Positions 1-7,164 of a DNA stretch of 7,164 nt are shown piece by piece. The notes under the pieces are model-generated. The model searched no databases, had not been told where the DNA came from, and saw only the letters and a program-made list of their open reading frames with translations. The position numbers and the translations under genes are program-made. Within the stretch, counting starts at the first letter, position 1, and each line of letters starts with the position of its first letter. This DNA comes from a virus (Duplodnaviria > Heunggongvirae > Uroviricota > Caudoviricetes): the IMG/VR virus record IMGVR_UViG_2695420763_000004. One strand, written 5' to 3'.

Positions 1-31
1 CCTGAAATCTTTACTGCCATATTCACCCCAC

Positions 32-58
32 AAAAAAGCCCGCCTGAACCGGCGGGCT
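32..58 (-). terminator. Putative rho-independent terminator downstream of lom
   Basis: Plus strand reads aaaaaa (32-37) then gcccgcc (38-44), loop tgaacc (45-50), ggcgggc (51-57). On the minus-strand RNA this is a 7-8 bp GC-rich stem followed directly by UUUUUU, about 27 nt after the lom stop codon (85-87). Confidence 0.6.
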
Positions 59-84
59 GTCATAACACTGTGTTACCTGGCTAA

Positions 85-669
85 TCAGAATTTATAACCG
101 ACACCCACGATGAAACCGTCAGTGCGCCAGTCGCCACTGCCGGAACCTTCATAAGCGACATCAATGGCCACGGACTCGGTCGGGTTAAACTGCACGCCAG
201 CCCCCCACGCCAGAGACGTGTTGCTGTGGCGACCGTCATCACTTCCGATCAGCACATCGTGCGTTTTCCCCTTGTTGTCAGTTACGCGGATATAATCTCC
301 GGAGAAAGTCGAAACACGGCTGTAAGCCACACCCGCCATCGCATACGCGCTGAACCATTCATTCACGCGCACAGACGGCCCCGCCATTACGCTGAACCAG
401 CGGTTACGCACGGAATCTTCATGCCAGCGGGTATCGCTGTAACGGGTCAGCTGGCGATTCTTGTCTCCTGCATAGCTGAATGACGTCACCAGCCCCAGCG
501 TATCCGTAAACTCATAACGGTATTTCACGTTAATCCCGTTAAGATCATCACTGCCGGGAACGTTGGTCCGGGCATGAAGATACCCCGCGCTCAGCGTGGA
601 CTGATGTTCAGACGCCCATGCAGGCGCACCGGATACGGCCAGACAAATGGCTGCACAAACTTTACGCAT
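85..669 (-). CDS. lom: Lom-like outer membrane beta-barrel protein (Ail/Lom/PagC/OmpX family), prophage moron
   Basis: 194-aa ORF. N-terminus MRKVCAAICLAVSGAPAWA-SEHQ looks like a Sec signal peptide with an AxA cleavage site. C-terminus ...DWRTDGFIVGVGYKF has alternating aromatic/hydrophobic residues and a terminal Phe typical of OMP beta-barrels, and matches my recollection of the lambda Lom C-terminus. Lies immediately downstream of J as in lambda. SD-like GAGAGG (plus 675-680) sits 5 nt before the ATG. Confidence 0.85.
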   Translation of the reverse strand: MRKVCAAICLAVSGAPAWASEHQSTLSAGYLHARTNVPGSDDLNGINVKYRYEFTDTLGLVTSFSYAGDKNRQLTRYSDTRWHEDSVRNRWFSVMAGPSVRVNEWFSAYAMAGVAYSRVSTFSGDYIRVTDNKGKTHDVLIGSDDGRHSNTSLAWGAGVQFNPTESVAIDVAYEGSGSGDWRTDGFIVGVGYKF

Positions 670-691
670 AATTACCTCTCGCTTTTCTGCA

Positions 692-717
692 ATAAAAAAG
701 GCGTCATTCCTGACGCC
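692..717 (-). terminator. Putative rho-independent terminator between J and lom
   Basis: Plus strand: aaaaaa (694-699), ggcgtca (700-706), loop ttcc (707-710), tgacgcc (711-717). On the minus-strand RNA: 7-bp stem GGCGUCA/UGACGCC with a GGAA tetraloop, followed by UUUUUUAUU. It sits about 23 nt after the J stop codon (740-742). Confidence 0.6.
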
Positions 718-739: not shown

Positions 740-3700
740 TCAACGAATACTGATGCCGGAAGCCGCTTTTTTGGTCACAATCACCGTACAGTCGGTGATA
801 TTGCCTGCCCCCTGATTGCCTTTCTGGAAAATCTTAAACTCCAGAGTGACGCTACCACCACCACTAGGCATATCAATAACTGCACTGTAACTACCGGGAA
901 TGGCCCCTTTAGTTTCTCTGGATGCGATTAATACGCCGTTTTTGCGAACTTCAAAACCATAACCCGTGTATCGCGTGCCTCCTGGGTTATTTCCGCTCCC
1001 CGGATCGTCATACGCTATACCGTTAAAAATAATGGGCGGAATAATAATCTGGCGGTCAAAGTTATGATCATCGCTGATGGTGACTGTAACCGTCCCGTTT
1101 GGTGTTTCCGTGTTACCCCACGTACCGACTTTTTTCGGGAAGGCTTTTGATACAGCTTTAACGAAATCCCCTCTGACCTGGGTCGCCTCCAGCATGCCCT
1201 TAATCGTACAGTTCTGGTTAATCGTGACATTGTTGAGCGTTCCTGAGTTCGCATTCACACTACCACTGATATCCGCATTTTTAGCGGTCAGCTTTCCGTC
1301 TGATGTCAGGGAAAATACCGGAGGACTGCCACCGCTGGTAATGGTGGGGGCCGTCAGGCGCTTCAGGAACACGTCGTTCATGAATATCTGATTGCCCTGC
1401 GCCACAAACATCGGCGTTTCATTCCCGTTTGCCGGGTCAATAAATGCGATACGGTTAGCGGCAACCAGAAACTGACTCAGTTTGCCTTCCTCCGTGTCCT
1501 CCATGCTGAGGCCAATACCCGCGACATAATGTTTGCCGTCTTTGGTCTGCTCAATTTTGACAGCCCACATGGCATTCCATTTATCGTTGGCATCCTTCCA
1601 CTCTTTCGAAAACTCCTCCAGTCTGCTGGCGTTATCCTCCGTCAGCTCGACTTTTTCCAGCAGCTCCTTGCCGAGATGGGATTCGGTTATCTTGCCTTTG
1701 AAAAAATCCAGGTAACCTTCCGCATCATCGCTCGCCCGACCGACGGCCTCCACGAATGCCGATTTGCCAACGGTGTTCACACTGCGGATATAAAAGTAAT
1801 AATCATGGCCCGGTTTGATATTGATACTGGCGGCTATCCAGTACAGCGCCGTACCAAGATAGCGGGCTGTGGTTTCAACCTGCCTGATATCCGCAATCCG
1901 CTTTTCCGAGAACCAGAACTCAAACTGTACCGTCGGATCATAAACCGCAAGATGCGGCGTGGCGGTTATCTGAAAATAGCCCGGCGTCAGCTCAATCCGA
2001 GACGGCGCTGCCGGTGCGGCAATCCGGAACGATACCGATGCCGGATCGCCCTGCTGTCCCCACGCATTTACCGCCCGGACTGTCAGCCTGTAGTTCCCCA
2101 GCGCCAGTTGCGTGAAGCGGTATGTGGTTTCCGCCGTCCGGGCCGTGCTGACCAGCCGCTCACTGCCGTCATCCGCTGCCACGGTCAGGCGAAGCAGGAA
2201 GCTCACGCCCTTCACCACCTTCGGCGTGTCCCAGCGGGCCAGTACCTGATACTCCCCGCTGTCTGCGGTGACTTCGGCAGTCAGGTGCTGCACCGCTGGC
2301 GGCGTGACACCATTCACCGTGCCGCTCTGGTCGCCGTCAAAGTGCGCCCCGTTATCCACGATGGCTTCTTTTTCCGGTACATGCTGCACGGCAGTGATGG
2401 CATACGTGCCGTCATCGTTCTCACGGATACTCACACAACGGAACAGGCGCTGGCGCAACGTCGGCAACTTCAGCCCCCATACGCTGTATCCGGCAACGCC
2501 GTCAGGAACACGGCTCACTTTTACCTTCACGCCGTCGGTGACGGACTGGACCTCCACGCTGACCGGATTGCCACTTCCGTCAACCAGGCTTATCAGCGTG
2601 GTACCGGAGGATGGCAGCGTGATTTCACGGTCGAGCGTCAGCGTCCGGGTCTGGCTGTTCACCGCCAGCACGCGCCCGCCGGTGCTGATACCGGCATAGT
2701 CATCATCGCAGATTTCAATGACATCGCCCGGTACATGGCGAAGCCCTTCCGCACCCACGCTGAAGTCCACGGTCTGCGTTTCCAGCAGCTCCGTTTTAAT
2801 CAGCCACAGCCCGGCTCGGTGTGCCTGCCCCCGGCTGGTACAGCCAAAGGCATCCATCTTCGTGACGTTACGACCGTAACGGGCAATGGCCTGCGTGTCC
2901 TCCACAAGCTCTGTCGCCGTCTCCCAGCCGTTATCCGGGTCAATCCAGTTCACCTCAACGGCATTATGGCGGTCCTTGAGGGCGCTGAAGCTGTAGCGGA
3001 ACGGCGCGCCATCATCCGGCATCACCACATTACTGCGGTTATAGGTCCACACCTTATCCGACGGTCGGTCCTGCACGAACGTCAGCGTCTGCCCGTTCCA
3101 TACCGGCATACAGCGCATCGCCGAGCAGAAATCACTGAGCACATCCCACGCCTTGCGCTGTGTGGTCAGGTACGCATTACAGGTGATGCGCGGCTCCGTG
3201 CCGCCAAAGCCGTCCGGCACTGACTGGTCGCAGTACTGGCCGATGATATACAGCGCCCATTTATCCACATCCGCCGCACCAAGACGTTTTCCCATGCCGT
3301 AGCGCGGGTGGGTCAGCATATCCCACAGACACCAGGCCATGTTGTTGCTGTATGCCGGTTTTAACGTTCCATCCCAGATACCACTGTATTGCCGCGTCTG
3401 CGGGTTATAGTTCGACGGCACCTGCAGAATGCGCCCGCGAAGATGATAATTACGGCTCACCTGCTGGCTGCCGAACTGCTCCGAGTCCACCTGCACGCCG
3501 ACCAGTGCCGTGTTCGGGTAGCACTGTTTCACATCGATGATTTCGGTGTATGACGACCAGAGCGTTTTGTTCTGCAGCTGGTCTGTGGTGCTGTCCGGCG
3601 TCATCCTGCGCATCCGGATATTAAACGGGCGCGGCGGCAGGTTATCCACCACCACCGAGGCCAGATACTGCGAGGTGGTTTTGCCCTTAATGGTGATGTC

Positions 3701-4153
3701 TTTTTCCGTCACCCAGCCACCGTTACGTTGTATCTGAACCAGCAGGCGGACTTCCGATGGATTCCGGTCCCCCTTTGAGGTGGTTTCCACCAGTGCCTGC
3801 ACGCCGAAAGTAAAACGCAGACGGTCAATGTTTGCCGACGTGATGGTCCGGGTGATCGGCGTGTCATATTTCACTTCTGTACCGAGCACCGTCTCGGAGC
3901 CGGAGGATTCAAATCCCTCCGGCGGTGTCTGCTCCTGCTCACCGGCCCGGAACACCACCGTGACGCCGGATATATTGGTATTCCCCTCACTGTCCAGCAC
4001 CGGCGTACTGTTCAGCAGCACGCTTTTTAATCCATCCACCGGACCTTCAACCGGCCCTTCGCTGATGGCATCGATCACACTCAGCAGCTGCGTGGACTTC
4101 AGGTTGTCCTTCGCTTCGCGCGGGGTATGCCCCTTACTGCTGCCTTTACCCAT
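740..4153 (-). CDS. J: Central tail fibre / host specificity protein J (tail tip attachment protein)
   Basis: 1137-aa ORF. From the N-terminus [34 protein letters not shown]... through roughly residue 960 it is near-identical to my recollection of lambda gpJ (1132 aa). The last ~160 residues are related but clearly diverged. GGAG Shine-Dalgarno (plus 4162-4165) lies 8 nt upstream of the ATG (4151-4153). Position between I and lom matches lambda. Confidence 0.95.
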
Positions 4154-4213: not shown

Positions 4214-4885
4214 TCAGCGACCAATCACCACAACCTGACCACCATCCCCTTCGTCTGCCGTGCTGATCTCCTGAGAGACCACCCGCGACCCCACGCGCAT
4301 TTCACCGTACAGAACGGGCAGAACATTGCCCTGGGCAACCATGTTATCCAGTGACGAGAAATACGTGTTCTGTTTGCCGTTATCTGTACTGGCTGCCGTG
4401 GGCGTCCTGGCTTTCGGTGCCAGCATCTGCGCCACACCACCGAGCACCATACTGGCACCGAGAGAAAACAGGATGCCGGTCATACCACCGGCCCCAATGG
4501 CTGCCCCCCATGCTGCAAGGGTGGCTCCGGCGGTAAAGAATGATCCGGCAATGGCGGCAGCCCCCAGGACAATCTGGAATACGCCACCTGACTTGGCCCC
4601 GGCGACTCTGGGAACAATATGAATCACAGCGCCATCAGGCAGAGTCTCATGTAACTGCGCCGTTAACCCGGACGTGCTGACGTCCCGCCCGGCAATCCGT
4701 ACCTGATACCAGCCGTCGCTCAGTTTCTGACGAAACGCCGGGAGCTGTGTGGCCAGTGCCCGGATGGCTTCAGCCCCCGTTTTCACACGAAGGTCGATGC
4801 GGCGACCAAATCGTTGTAAATCCCCGTAAAGGCAGATGCGCGCCATGCCCGGTGACGCCAGAGGGAGTGTGTGCGTCGCTGCCAT
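4214..4885 (-). CDS. I: Tail tip assembly protein I
   Basis: 223-aa ORF MAATHTLPLASPGMARICLYGDLQRFGRRIDLRVKTGAEAIRALATQLP..., matching lambda gpI (223 aa) from memory. The start overlaps the 3' end of K by 103 bp in a different frame, as in lambda. Tandem stops TGATGA at the 3' end. Confidence 0.93.
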   Translation of the reverse strand: MAATHTLPLASPGMARICLYGDLQRFGRRIDLRVKTGAEAIRALATQLPAFRQKLSDGWYQVRIAGRDVSTSGLTAQLHETLPDGAVIHIVPRVAGAKSGGVFQIVLGAAAIAGSFFTAGATLAAWGAAIGAGGMTGILFSLGASMVLGGVAQMLAPKARTPTAASTDNGKQNTYFSSLDNMVAQGNVLPVLYGEMRVGSRVVSQEISTADEGDGGQVVVIGR

Positions 4886-5526
4886 TTGTCGGTGTACCTC
4901 TCTCGTTTGCTCAGTTGTTCAGGAATATGGTGCAGCAGCTCGCCGTCGCCGCAGTAAATTGCGGCGTGATTCGGCACTGATGAACCAAAACAGCACAGCA
5001 GCACATCGCCCGGCTGTGCCGCTGACAACGGCACCTGATACAGCCCCGTCGCCTCCAGATTATCCAGATAGAGATTCTGACCGTGACGCCACCAGTCATC
5101 CTCACGATAAAAGTCCGGCATCTCAATCCCCGCCAGATGATAAGCATCCCGGAACAGTGTGTAACAGTCCGTCACACCGTGCTCAAAGCGCCGCCCGGTG
5201 AGATGCGGCACACAGCGGAACTTATGAATCGTCCCCCGGCAGACCAGCCACCACGGCAAATCACTCTGCACCTGCAGCCGCCGGTCGGCCTCACTCAGCC
5301 AGGGCAGACCACCGGGGTGGCTGTGGACCAGCGCCACAATCTCACCCTGCATTTCTGCCTGCAGCCAGTCTTCCGGCGACATACGGAAATACGCCTCCGG
5401 CTCACCGGAGATATTCACGCAGGGAAAATATCTTTCCCCCTCCGGCGTGCTTACCACGAAGCCGCACGACTCCGCTGGCGCACATCGCCGGGCGTGCGCC
5501 AGAATCGCTGATTCTGTCTGTGTCAT
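4783..5526 (-). CDS. K: Tail tip assembly protein K (JAMM/MPN metallopeptidase-like plus NlpC/P60-like domains); long 247-aa form, classical 199-aa start would be at 5382
   Basis: 247-aa ORF MTQTESAILAHARRC... The ATG at 5524-5526 is 5 nt downstream of the L stop. The classical lambda K annotation (199 aa) corresponds to the in-frame Met49 (codon 5380-5382), which is preceded by GGAGG at a 13-nt spacing. JAMM-like motif HSHPGGLPWLSEAD (H68, H70, S78, D81). A DCYT cysteine (C121) and downstream His residues are consistent with an NlpC/P60 papain-like fold. Confidence 0.9.
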   Translation of the reverse strand: MTQTESAILAHARRCAPAESCGFVVSTPEGERYFPCVNISGEPEAYFRMSPEDWLQAEMQGEIVALVHSHPGGLPWLSEADRRLQVQSDLPWWLVCRGTIHKFRCVPHLTGRRFEHGVTDCYTLFRDAYHLAGIEMPDFYREDDWWRHGQNLYLDNLEATGLYQVPLSAAQPGDVLLCCFGSSVPNHAAIYCGDGELLHHIPEQLSKRERYTDKWQRRTHSLWRHRAWRASAFTGIYNDLVAASTFV

Positions 5527-5531
5527 GGGAT

Positions 5532-6230
5532 TTACTGCGAAAGTTTGTTAATGGAAAGGAAGCCGCCAAAGTTGCCGACGTTATTGCGGAACTTACAACC
5601 GCTCAGGCATTTGCTGCATTTATCCTTCGTGATATCGGACGTTGGCTGGTCATATTCATCCGCGACAGCCGGACCGCTATAACCGCACTCGTCACCGCGA
5701 TAGGTCCAGGTGCAGGTGTTGGCCAGCATGATACGTCCCGGAAAAACAGCGCCATCCGTTTCCGTCGGCGTGGACAGTACAAAGGAGGCACTCACCGCGC
5801 TCAGTTCGCTGCACTGCTCAATGCGCCAGCGGCTGATCACCTCCTGCTCCGGATCGGCGTAACTGTTTCCGTTGACGAAGTTCACCGCATCCAGAAAACG
5901 GGCGTAAACCTTACGCCGGACCACCGCTCCGCCGACCAGACTCTGCATATCTTCCGCCATCCCGGTGACCATACCGTACAGGTTAGAAACCGTCAGCGTG
6001 GGGCGCGTACTGGTGCCTTTGCCATTCAGTTCAAAACCGCTCCCCTGAATGGGATACGGCTGATACTGTCGCCCCTGCCAGGTGACCGGCTCACCTTTTT
6101 CGTTCTGCTCATTACAGAAAAAATAACGTTCTCCACCGACCTCTGTCAGGTCGATTTCCCAGAGCACCACGCTGGCCGACTGCTCCGCACGGGTGCATTC
6201 ATTCAGTGTTTCCTGCCGGATATCCTGCAT
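5532..6230 (-). CDS. L: Tail tip assembly protein L
   Basis: 232-aa ORF MQDIRQETLNECTRAEQSASVVLWEIDLTEVGGERYFFCNEQNEKGEPVTWQGRQYQPYP..., matching lambda gpL (232 aa) from memory. Its start codon shares one nucleotide with the M stop (ATGA-type overlap). C-terminal Cys cluster C-x8-C ... C-x2-C-x3-C. Confidence 0.95.
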   Translation of the reverse strand: MQDIRQETLNECTRAEQSASVVLWEIDLTEVGGERYFFCNEQNEKGEPVTWQGRQYQPYPIQGSGFELNGKGTSTRPTLTVSNLYGMVTGMAEDMQSLVGGAVVRRKVYARFLDAVNFVNGNSYADPEQEVISRWRIEQCSELSAVSASFVLSTPTETDGAVFPGRIMLANTCTWTYRGDECGYSGPAVADEYDQPTSDITKDKCSKCLSGCKFRNNVGNFGGFLSINKLSQ

Positions 6231-6559
6231 CAGTTCACCACCTGTTCAAACTCTGCGCTGAACTCAACACGCAACATACTGACCCGCGACGACCATTTTG
6301 CGCAGGTCACCTTTATCTGCCGCCACTCATAAGGCGGCGTCCACAGAAAGGATTTCCAGCCCCCGTGCTCTTCCAGAAACGACTCCAGTACCGTGGCCTC
6401 CTCACGGGGGACAGAAAGCGTCACGCTGTACGTTTTCAGGTTGGCATTCAGCCCGGCAGGCGCTCGCTGAGAATAGCCATCACCAAAGCGCACCTTTCTT
6501 ACAGAAGGGACCGAAGCCACATCCATACCGGGTTTCACTTTCCAGCGGAAGGTCTTCAT
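6230..6559 (-). CDS. M: Tail tip assembly protein M
   Basis: 109-aa ORF MKTFRWKVKPGMDVASVPSVRKVRFGDGYSQRAPAGLNANLKTYSVTLSVPREEATVLESFLEEHGGWKSFLWTPPYEW..., matching lambda gpM (109 aa) from memory. Its start overlaps the H stop by 4 bp. Confidence 0.95.
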   Translation of the reverse strand: MKTFRWKVKPGMDVASVPSVRKVRFGDGYSQRAPAGLNANLKTYSVTLSVPREEATVLESFLEEHGGWKSFLWTPPYEWRQIKVTCAKWSSRVSMLRVEFSAEFEQVVN

Positions 6560-7164
6560 CGTCCACCTCCGGAGAACAGGCCACCATCACGCATCTGTGT
6601 CTGAATTTCATCACGGGCACCCTTGCGGGCCATGTCATACACCGCCTTCAGAGCAGCCGGACCTATCTGACCGTTCGTGCCGTCGTTGTTAATCACCACA
6701 TGGTTATTCTGCTCAAACGTCCCGGACGCCTGCGACCGACTGTCCGCCATGCTGCCCGGTGTACCGACATAACCGCCGGTGGCATAGCCGCGCATCAGCC
6801 GGTAAAGATTCCCCACGCCAATCCGGCTGGTTGCCTCCTTCGTGAAGACAAATTCACCACGGTGAACAATCCCCGCTGGCTCATATTTGCCGCCGGTTCC
6901 CGTAAATCCTCCGGTTGCAAAATGGAATTTCGCCGCAGCGGCCTGAATGGCTGTACCGCCTGACGCGGATGCGCCGCCACCAACAGCCCCGCCAATGGCG
7001 CTGCCGATACTCCCGACAATCCCCACCATTGCCTGCTTAAGCAGAATTTCTGTCATCATGGACAGCACGGAACGGGTGAAGCTGCGCCAGTTCTGCTCAC
7101 TGCCGGTCAGCATCGCCGCCATATTCTGTGCAATACCATCAAAGGTCTGCGTGGCTGCACTTTT
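6556..7164 (-). CDS. H: Tail tape measure protein H, C-terminal fragment (5' end lies beyond the window)
   Basis: The frame is open from the window edge (7164) to the stop at 6556-6558. The track shows only the part from an internal Met (7122), but the 14 upstream codons (KSAATQTFDGIAQN) contain no stop. The Gly-rich C-terminus ...GIVGSIGSAIGGAVGGGASASGG...GGLFSGGGR matches the lambda gpH C-terminus from memory. Position immediately upstream of M matches lambda. Confidence 0.9.
   Translation of the reverse strand, partial: KSAATQTFDGIAQNMAAMLTGSEQNWRSFTRSVLSMMTEILLKQAMVGIVGSIGSAIGGAVGGGASASGGTAIQAAAAKFHFATGGFTGTGGKYEPAGIVHRGEFVFTKEATSRIGVGNLYRLMRGYATGGYVGTPGSMADSRSQASGTFEQNNHVVINNDGTNGQIGPAALKAVYDMARKGARDEIQTQMRDGGLFSGGGR

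Follow-up and report, generated by a model that had tools for sequence, protein, structure and literature searches.

A lambda-like J tip attachment protein carrying a receptor-binding domain of the phage 434 type, with OmpC as the predicted receptor

The host-range allele h434 was a marker of classical genetics; for the J specificity region, modular lineages defined by their indels were reportedly described in 2018. In phage lambda the J product, gpJ, is a trimer that consists of hub domains, FNIII domains, a helical shaft, a β-prism straight fibre and an Ig-like receptor-binding domain (RBD) (PMC11101478). The RBD enters the LamB trimer with four loops at its lower end; as a result of LamB binding the bases of the RBDs spread, the fibre becomes twisted and the tail tip opens (PMC11101478). 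J homologues have natural indel hot spots at lambda positions 1012, 1048-49, 1077-78 and 1107, and residues 1012 and 1107 are required for the laboratory switch of lambda to OmpF (PMC6646904). Placing the J gene of phage 434 in the position of lambda J switches the receptor to OmpC, which has been known as the receptor of phage 434 since the 1970s (PMC3509688, PMC11101478), and genome sequences for both 434 and lambda h434 imm21 appeared in 2022 (PMC9119081). OmpC is also used by RBDs of the type found in phage 2H10 and in A8, a gpJ chimera engineered to use this porin (PMC11338833), and by the RBD of phi330, where the RBDs of phi330, 434 and lambda have pairwise identities of 35-40% (PMC12502783). 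The J protein of Gifsy-1, with 18% identity to lambda in its C-terminal region, additionally binds OmpX and BtuB (PMC12312913). Delivery particles derived from lambda have been retargeted with natural J RBD alleles (PMC11338833).

The DNA analysed here (the window) is a stretch of 7,164 nucleotides from the Caudoviricetes record IMGVR_UViG_2695420763_000004. Its genes (Table 1) follow the order H-M-L-K-I-J-lom, collinear with lambda 12000-20500 and with 434. A Pfam search identifies six gpJ domains in J, all above the curated cut-offs and in the expected order (families FNIII-A_GpJ, Phage-tail_3, Ig_J, Ig_J_second, Phage_Tail_Tip and Ig_GpJ_C); both this domain order and the position in the tail module identify the predicted protein as a lambda-like tip attachment protein. 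Its C-terminal domain scores 88.3 bits with PF12421 (Ig_GpJ_C; cut-off 26.2), the match spanning residues 1001-1136 and profile positions 1-134 of 135. The 163 residues of the RBD alone match the solved gpJ structures PDB 9wca (E=9.9e-33) and 8xcj (E=4.5e-24) over their full length, and the Pfam score together with these matches assigns the predicted RBD to the Ig_GpJ_C family. An AlphaFold2 model of residues 942-1137 from the single sequence is mostly β and of low confidence (pLDDT 52.9, pTM 0.42), unfit for fold search or for mapping of loops. An Rfam scan of the whole window gave no match, and a repeat search of positions 1-2000 found only one weak inverted pair, which lies inside lom. Two antisense open reading frames on the plus strand (647-931 and 1077-1391) were dismissed as genes, having no Pfam match and lying opposite a conserved gene; the sole promoter-like site in 1-1500 is no more than expected by chance.

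Table 1. Coordinates of the genes and of the segments of J in the window.
Feature	Position	Strand	Description
H, 3' end		minus	lambdoid tail-tip module; from the ORF list
M	6559..6230	minus	from the ORF list
L	6230..5532	minus	from the ORF list
K	5526..4783	minus	from the ORF list
I	4885..4214	minus	from the ORF list
J, tip attachment / central tail fibre protein	740..4153	minus	single intact ORF, 1137 aa
Helical shaft and central straight fibre, conserved	1238..1621	minus	Pfam Phage_Tail_Tip, residues 845-972
Transition zone, end of central straight fibre	1232..1340	minus	residues ~939-974; lambda-like with scattered changes
RBD cassette, 434 type	740..1231	minus	J residues 975-1137 and stop codon (740-742)
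V1	1094..1135	minus	residues 1007-1020; +2 relative to lambda at 1011/1012
V2	968..1024	minus	residues 1044-1062; +6 relative to lambda, ~1046-1051
V3	887..925	minus	residues 1077-1089; +1 relative to lambda at 1077/1078
V4	797..838	minus	residues 1106-1119; net -4 relative to lambda 1103-1110
Terminator-like hairpin, J-lom spacer	690..717	minus	stem 700-717, then T run
lom-like outer-membrane protein gene, 434 type	85..669	minus	194 aa; Pfam Ail_Lom E=1.3e-115

The J protein was aligned with those of lambda (NC_001416), phage 434 (OL657226) and mEp460_ev081 (LR597641). Residues 1-973 are 97.8% identical to lambda gpJ (21 substitutions). In blocks of 40 residues the identity is 93-100% as far as residue 960, 72% in 961-1000 and 23-47% beyond; from the NVTI motif (residue 975) onwards it is 41%, with four indels and 163 residues compared with 158 in lambda. 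This alignment maps the breakpoint of identity at the NVTI motif and agrees with an earlier note on this DNA, made from the letters and ORF translations alone, which had described some 975 conserved residues followed by about 160 diverged ones. The limits that the note gave for the diverged block, 740-1330, are also accurate: in the DNA, isolated mismatches with lambda appear from window position 1331 on and the sharp break follows at ~1215-1245 (about 1236), with identities per 30 nt of 83% (1250-1221), 67% (1220-1191) and at most 53% below. The DNA that encodes the shaft and straight fibre is 91-100% identical to lambda. At its end, in the transition zone, the 30-nt identities are 83-97% and the changes include S943N, V946A, S951P and N974S; this zone is the probable site of crossover. 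The block that cannot be aligned with lambda extends past the J stop codon: it also takes in the intergenic terminator and the greater part of lom and ends near window position 190.

The cassette has close counterparts among known phages. Over 740-1330 its DNA is 99.7% identical to mEp460_ev081, 98.5% to phage 434 and 98.3% to the classical hybrid lambda h434 imm21, and 97-98% identical to several Stx2-converting phages, ASU11, ev243, mEp332, PhiR34_1 and others; the phage record nearest to the window as a whole is lambda h434 imm21 (97.3%). The RBD protein is identical in 159 of 163 residues (97.5%) to that of 434, without gaps and with the same pattern of indels, and it is 100% identical to the RBDs of mEp460_ev081, Stx2d_112808, ASU11 and Stx2a_WGPS6. 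Over their whole length the J proteins of the window and of 434 (both 1137 residues) differ by 16 substitutions, with 92-100% identity in every block of 40 residues. By this near-identity the cassette is assigned to the h434 host-range allele class of J. Because the RBD is nearly identical to that of 434, whose receptor is OmpC, the literature on 434 predicts with high probability that the window RBD binds OmpC instead of LamB. The proposal that the swapped C-terminus is a receptor-specificity module for a receptor other than LamB thus fits a 434-type RBD that would use OmpC by homology; the further statement that the receptor is unknown does not hold, given the identity to 434, for which OmpC is known. 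A literature search, which included genome and virome reports on mEp460, found no receptor experiment on a phage with exactly this allele. The sequence type of an RBD does not correspond one-to-one to a receptor, since RBDs that are only 35-47% identical (A8/2H10, phi330) also use OmpC.

Comparison of J genes in sliding windows separates the RBD from the remainder of the protein. The J body of the Stx2d phage Stx2_112808 (Stx2d_112808) shows 56-87% identity to the window apart from an unaligned stretch of 37 nt, and in the transition zone the identity rises from 0.47-0.62 to 0.81-0.87 and then to 1.00; it jumps at window position 1235 to 99-100%, a level kept as far as the J stop, and most of lom is 96-97% identical. 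The closest J body is that of phage 2H10 (93-100%), yet the RBD of this phage is only 43-68% identical over 1235-759, and identity returns to 83-99% in lom. The RBD of 2H10 has the same sequence as PDB 9wca ('A8 gpJ 713') and represents a third RBD type, so that there are at least three allele classes (lambda, 434 and 2H10/A8), mutually 41-47% identical and with a common 5' boundary. The two comparisons place the limits of the cassette at ~1236 and ~759. Since Stx2d_112808 carries the same RBD on a divergent body and 2H10 a different RBD on the closest body, the RBD moves as a unit within these limits, independently of the J body and of lom. The exchange would take place between J genes through the conserved fibre-coding DNA on the 5' side (~1236-1340) and the region of J stop, terminator and lom on the 3' side. 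Taken as a whole, the data are very probably best explained by a 434-type RBD allele (740-1231) that sits on a lambda-like J, docks on OmpC and is an exchangeable module.

Had the C-terminus instead diverged in place, by point mutation and indels under diversifying selection and without recombination, the homology of the RBD types throughout their length (41-47%, with a conserved framework of strands) would be accounted for; the types must indeed first have arisen by divergence, and adaptive diversification at these sites has been argued (PMC6646904). However, the cassette is 99-100% identical in DNA within a J that is 56-87% identical elsewhere, the nearest backbone carries another cassette, and the limits at ~1236 and ~759 are sharp. 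A tblastn search of 50,697 phage records with the RBD further argues against it: 74 records match at 90% or above, 169 at less than 60% and none in between (243 records in all). Divergence in place is accordingly very improbable, and acquisition of the C-terminus by recombination, as the earlier note had suggested, is borne out by the same identical cassette in a distant backbone and the other cassette in the closest one. Given this bimodal distribution, the RBDs fall into discrete allele classes and do not form a continuum.

In base composition the block had been described as more AT-rich than the rest of J and the neighbouring genes. A sliding-window profile of GC content is not flat across J, and the first part of the description is correct: 740-1330 has 48.2% GC compared with 58.1% in the rest of J, and 3.8% of the 591-nt windows across the whole stretch have a GC content that low. 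The neighbour lom, however, is not AT-rich (55.7%; the J-lom spacer of 70 nt has 35.7%), and the drop begins upstream of the cassette, in DNA that is lambda-like. It starts at about window position 1950, ~700 bp upstream, and 1241-1950, which is 91-100% identical to lambda, already has only 51.4%. The GC content of the cassette (47.8%, GC3 0.50) could be read as the mark of DNA recently imported from beyond the lambdoid gene pool when it is set against the RBD of lambda itself (54.3%, GC3 0.61; 6.5 points, p=0.049) or against the N-terminal two-thirds of J (59%), but there is no significant difference between the cassette and the 213 codons that precede it (J residues 761-973, p=0.18). Moreover, the domain falls in a gpJ-specific Pfam family, every match in DNA or protein is to a lambdoid J gene, from E. 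coli except in the case of two Salmonella phages and a single record with the label Campylobacter, and no closer relatives were seen in non-lambdoid AT-rich phages. We give such an import almost no credence. The AT-richness is real, but it is a weak argument for foreign origin because the fall in GC begins in lambda-like DNA, the cassette resembles the codons before it and it lies only 6.5 points below the lambda RBD.

All three allele classes have the framework strands of the RBD in conserved form, whereas four segments (V1-V4, Table 1) are hypervariable and hold all indels relative to lambda. These indels coincide with the four hot spots of J described previously (PMC6646904). By analogy with the lambda structures, V1-V4 are probably the counterparts of the four distal loops inserted into LamB by the lambda RBD; they would then be the receptor-contacting loops, remodelled for OmpC, and OmpC specificity would be expected to reside in them. 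Three J chains are predicted to form the central fibre with three RBDs at its tip, which would dock on the trimeric porin OmpC in place of LamB, as judged from homology with 434 and the lambda h434 hybrids. The binding signal would be passed up the conserved fibre and the tail tip would open, as in lambda; because everything upstream of the RBD, from the hub and two FNIII/Ig domains to the shaft and straight fibre, is lambda-like, transmission through the shaft and straight fibre is presumed to follow the mechanism seen in the lambda structures.

Four residues distinguish the RBD from that of laboratory 434 (N1019D, I1108V, Q1110H and G1115R, with the window residue first). All four lie in or beside V1 or V4 (N1019D in V1, the other three in V4), the counterparts of lambda 1012 and 1107, which control the receptor switch, and in lambda four substitutions in the RBD are enough to add a receptor (PMC6646904). 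Natural variation touches the same region, as eight variants of the 434 type differ at 12 sites, and residue 1115 among them is G, R or W. The engineered gpJ chimeras A8 and 1A2 can tell OmpC alleles apart (PMC11338833). The RBD might, then, be of the 434 type and yet recognize a different set of OmpC alleles or an additional porin on account of these substitutions. We consider this unlikely: polymorphism within the 434 type is not significantly enriched in the V segments (7 of 12 sites, P~0.10), the two RBDs are 97.5% identical without indels, and the window allele is widespread, identical in several phages and present at 99% identity or more in 528 genome records. As the window allele is the widespread one, any difference in specificity is more likely a peculiarity of the laboratory 434 isolate. 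On the preferred reading, that of a 434-type RBD docking on OmpC, residues 1019, 1108, 1110 and 1115 could conceivably tune which natural OmpC variants are recognized, with the G/R/W states of 1115 switching host range on a fine scale between lineages of E. coli; this is a speculative suggestion with a rather low chance of being correct.

Downstream of J, the hairpin in the J-lom spacer has a counterpart in the 434 record, where a terminator is annotated in the same spacer; relative to 434 its stem has paired changes that keep the pairing. The lom gene is ~27-80% identical to that of lambda per 30-nt block and 93-97% identical to that of 434 over most of its length, with 82% at the 5' end, where it has an in-frame deletion of 15 nt. 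Phage 2H10 combines this type of lom with a different RBD. Although lom belongs to the block in which the window and lambda differ, it is exchanged independently of the RBD.

Of 5426 complete E. coli genomes, 2114 (about 39%) contain the RBD DNA (740-1240), with 528 records at 99% identity or more. The RBD DNA of lambda itself occurs in 98 of the 5426, in every case at 99% or more; many of the 98 are laboratory lysogens, and each of the five genomes among the matches listed is a laboratory strain, including three DE3 lysogens. In this set of genomes the 434-type RBD is thus some twenty times commoner than that of lambda, and it is the lambda allele that is rare. The window allele is also found in several Stx-converting phages. 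The earlier note had singled out the C-terminus of J as the part most likely to carry new biology, an expectation that a common natural allele does not satisfy. Since the RBD of lambda is the unusual allele among E. coli genomes, divergence from lambda is a poor criterion of novelty for J. Determination of host range by the C-terminus, the h434 allele with OmpC, mosaic exchange and indel-defined lineages have all been published already. For annotation, the J protein of the window is to be read as OmpC-type and not as LamB-type. A catalogue of RBD alleles together with the spectra of OmpC variants that they recognize would have applied value, given their use in retargeting (PMC11338833).

Phage 434 (J in OL657226; lambda h434 imm21, OM418627) is the described system that the window most resembles at the C-terminus of J: the protein has the same length, lom downstream is of the 434 type and the J-lom terminator occupies the same position. 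It differs in that the J body of 434 is only ~95-96% identical to the window in DNA, that the genes H to I of the window are 99-100% identical to lambda and not 434-like, and that lom of the window has the in-frame deletion. Lambda gpJ in complex with LamB (PDB 8XCJ/8XCK; PMC11101478) belongs to the same family and has the same order of domains, with hub, FNIII domains, shaft and straight fibre identical or nearly so. Its RBD is a homologous Ig-like domain (E=4.5e-24 with the RBD alone), and docking as a trimer followed by opening of the tail is presumably common to both; in contrast, the two RBDs have 41% identity with indels of +2, +6, +1 and -4, and the receptor is LamB for lambda and OmpC, by homology to 434, for the window. 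The 2H10/'A8' RBD (PDB 9WCA/9WCB; PMC11338833) represents the third allele, which has the same 5' boundary (NVTI, residue 975) and a reported specificity for OmpC, but is 46-47% identical to the window RBD and has a different pattern of indels. The J proteins of phi330 (PMC12502783) and Gifsy-1 (PMC12312913), likened here by their published descriptions, also join a conserved N-terminal body to a divergent, OmpC-targeting C-terminal RBD.

Lambda DNA identity is 98-100% over window 4465-7164, which holds the 3' end of H, the genes M, L and K and most of I. It falls to 88% in the 3' part of gene I (4464-4315) and remains at 91-99% in the J body downstream of this drop. The fall marks another mosaic junction in addition to the one within J; it lies upstream of J, in the 3' part of gene I. 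Searched as a whole against phage records and complete E. coli genomes, the window gave no match above 97.9%.

Downstream of J, the window was compared with phages 434 and mEp460_ev081, whose receptor-binding domain (RBD, the C-terminal domain of the tail-tip protein J) is near-identical to that of the window. Relative to both, the 15-nt deletion in lom falls in the signal-peptide region; the lom product has 194 aa in the window (N-terminus MRKVCAAICLAVSGAPAWA) versus 199 aa in the two phages. The stem of the J-lom hairpin reads GGCGTCAGGAATGACGCC in the window versus GGCACCAGAAATGGTGCC in 434 and mEp460_ev081, with pairing kept. The changes come in pairs that preserve the stem, a small natural case of compensatory change in this terminator. 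The hairpin beyond lom has eight pairs, of which seven are G-C, with a T run behind the stem, and is kept in lambda and 434 (identity 0.94-1.00 over window 1-62).

Features of the window and of phage 2H10 (L005)
Feature	Coordinates	Strand	Remark
lom	window 85-669	minus	15-nt in-frame deletion at about 625-640, 5' end
J-lom terminator hairpin	window 700-717		paired stem changes vs 434 / mEp460_ev081
Strong terminator-like hairpin	window 37-58	minus	directly downstream of lom
J of phage 2H10	L005 952-4350		RBD is that of PDB 9wca

The 32-residue straight-fibre peptide around F924 (J residues 902-933, window 1355-1450) is the same as that of lambda. This peptide has been reported as a trigger of HepS, a prophage abortive-infection nuclease (PMC13043305); sensitivity to HepS would be the prediction for this phage.

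The RBD of phage 2H10, whose J body is closest to that of the window, shows 100% identity with PDB 9wca ('A8 gpJ 713'), A8 being an OmpC-targeting gpJ chimera (PMC11338833). By this sequence match, 2H10 is a natural carrier of the RBD used in the A8 engineering work. The 434-type J RBD occurs in 2114 of 5426 complete E. coli genomes; the lambda type occurs in only 98 of the 5426, and the five matches listed for it all come from laboratory strains, including three DE3 lysogens. Natural lambdoid prophages with LamB-type specificity seem to be rare in E. coli.
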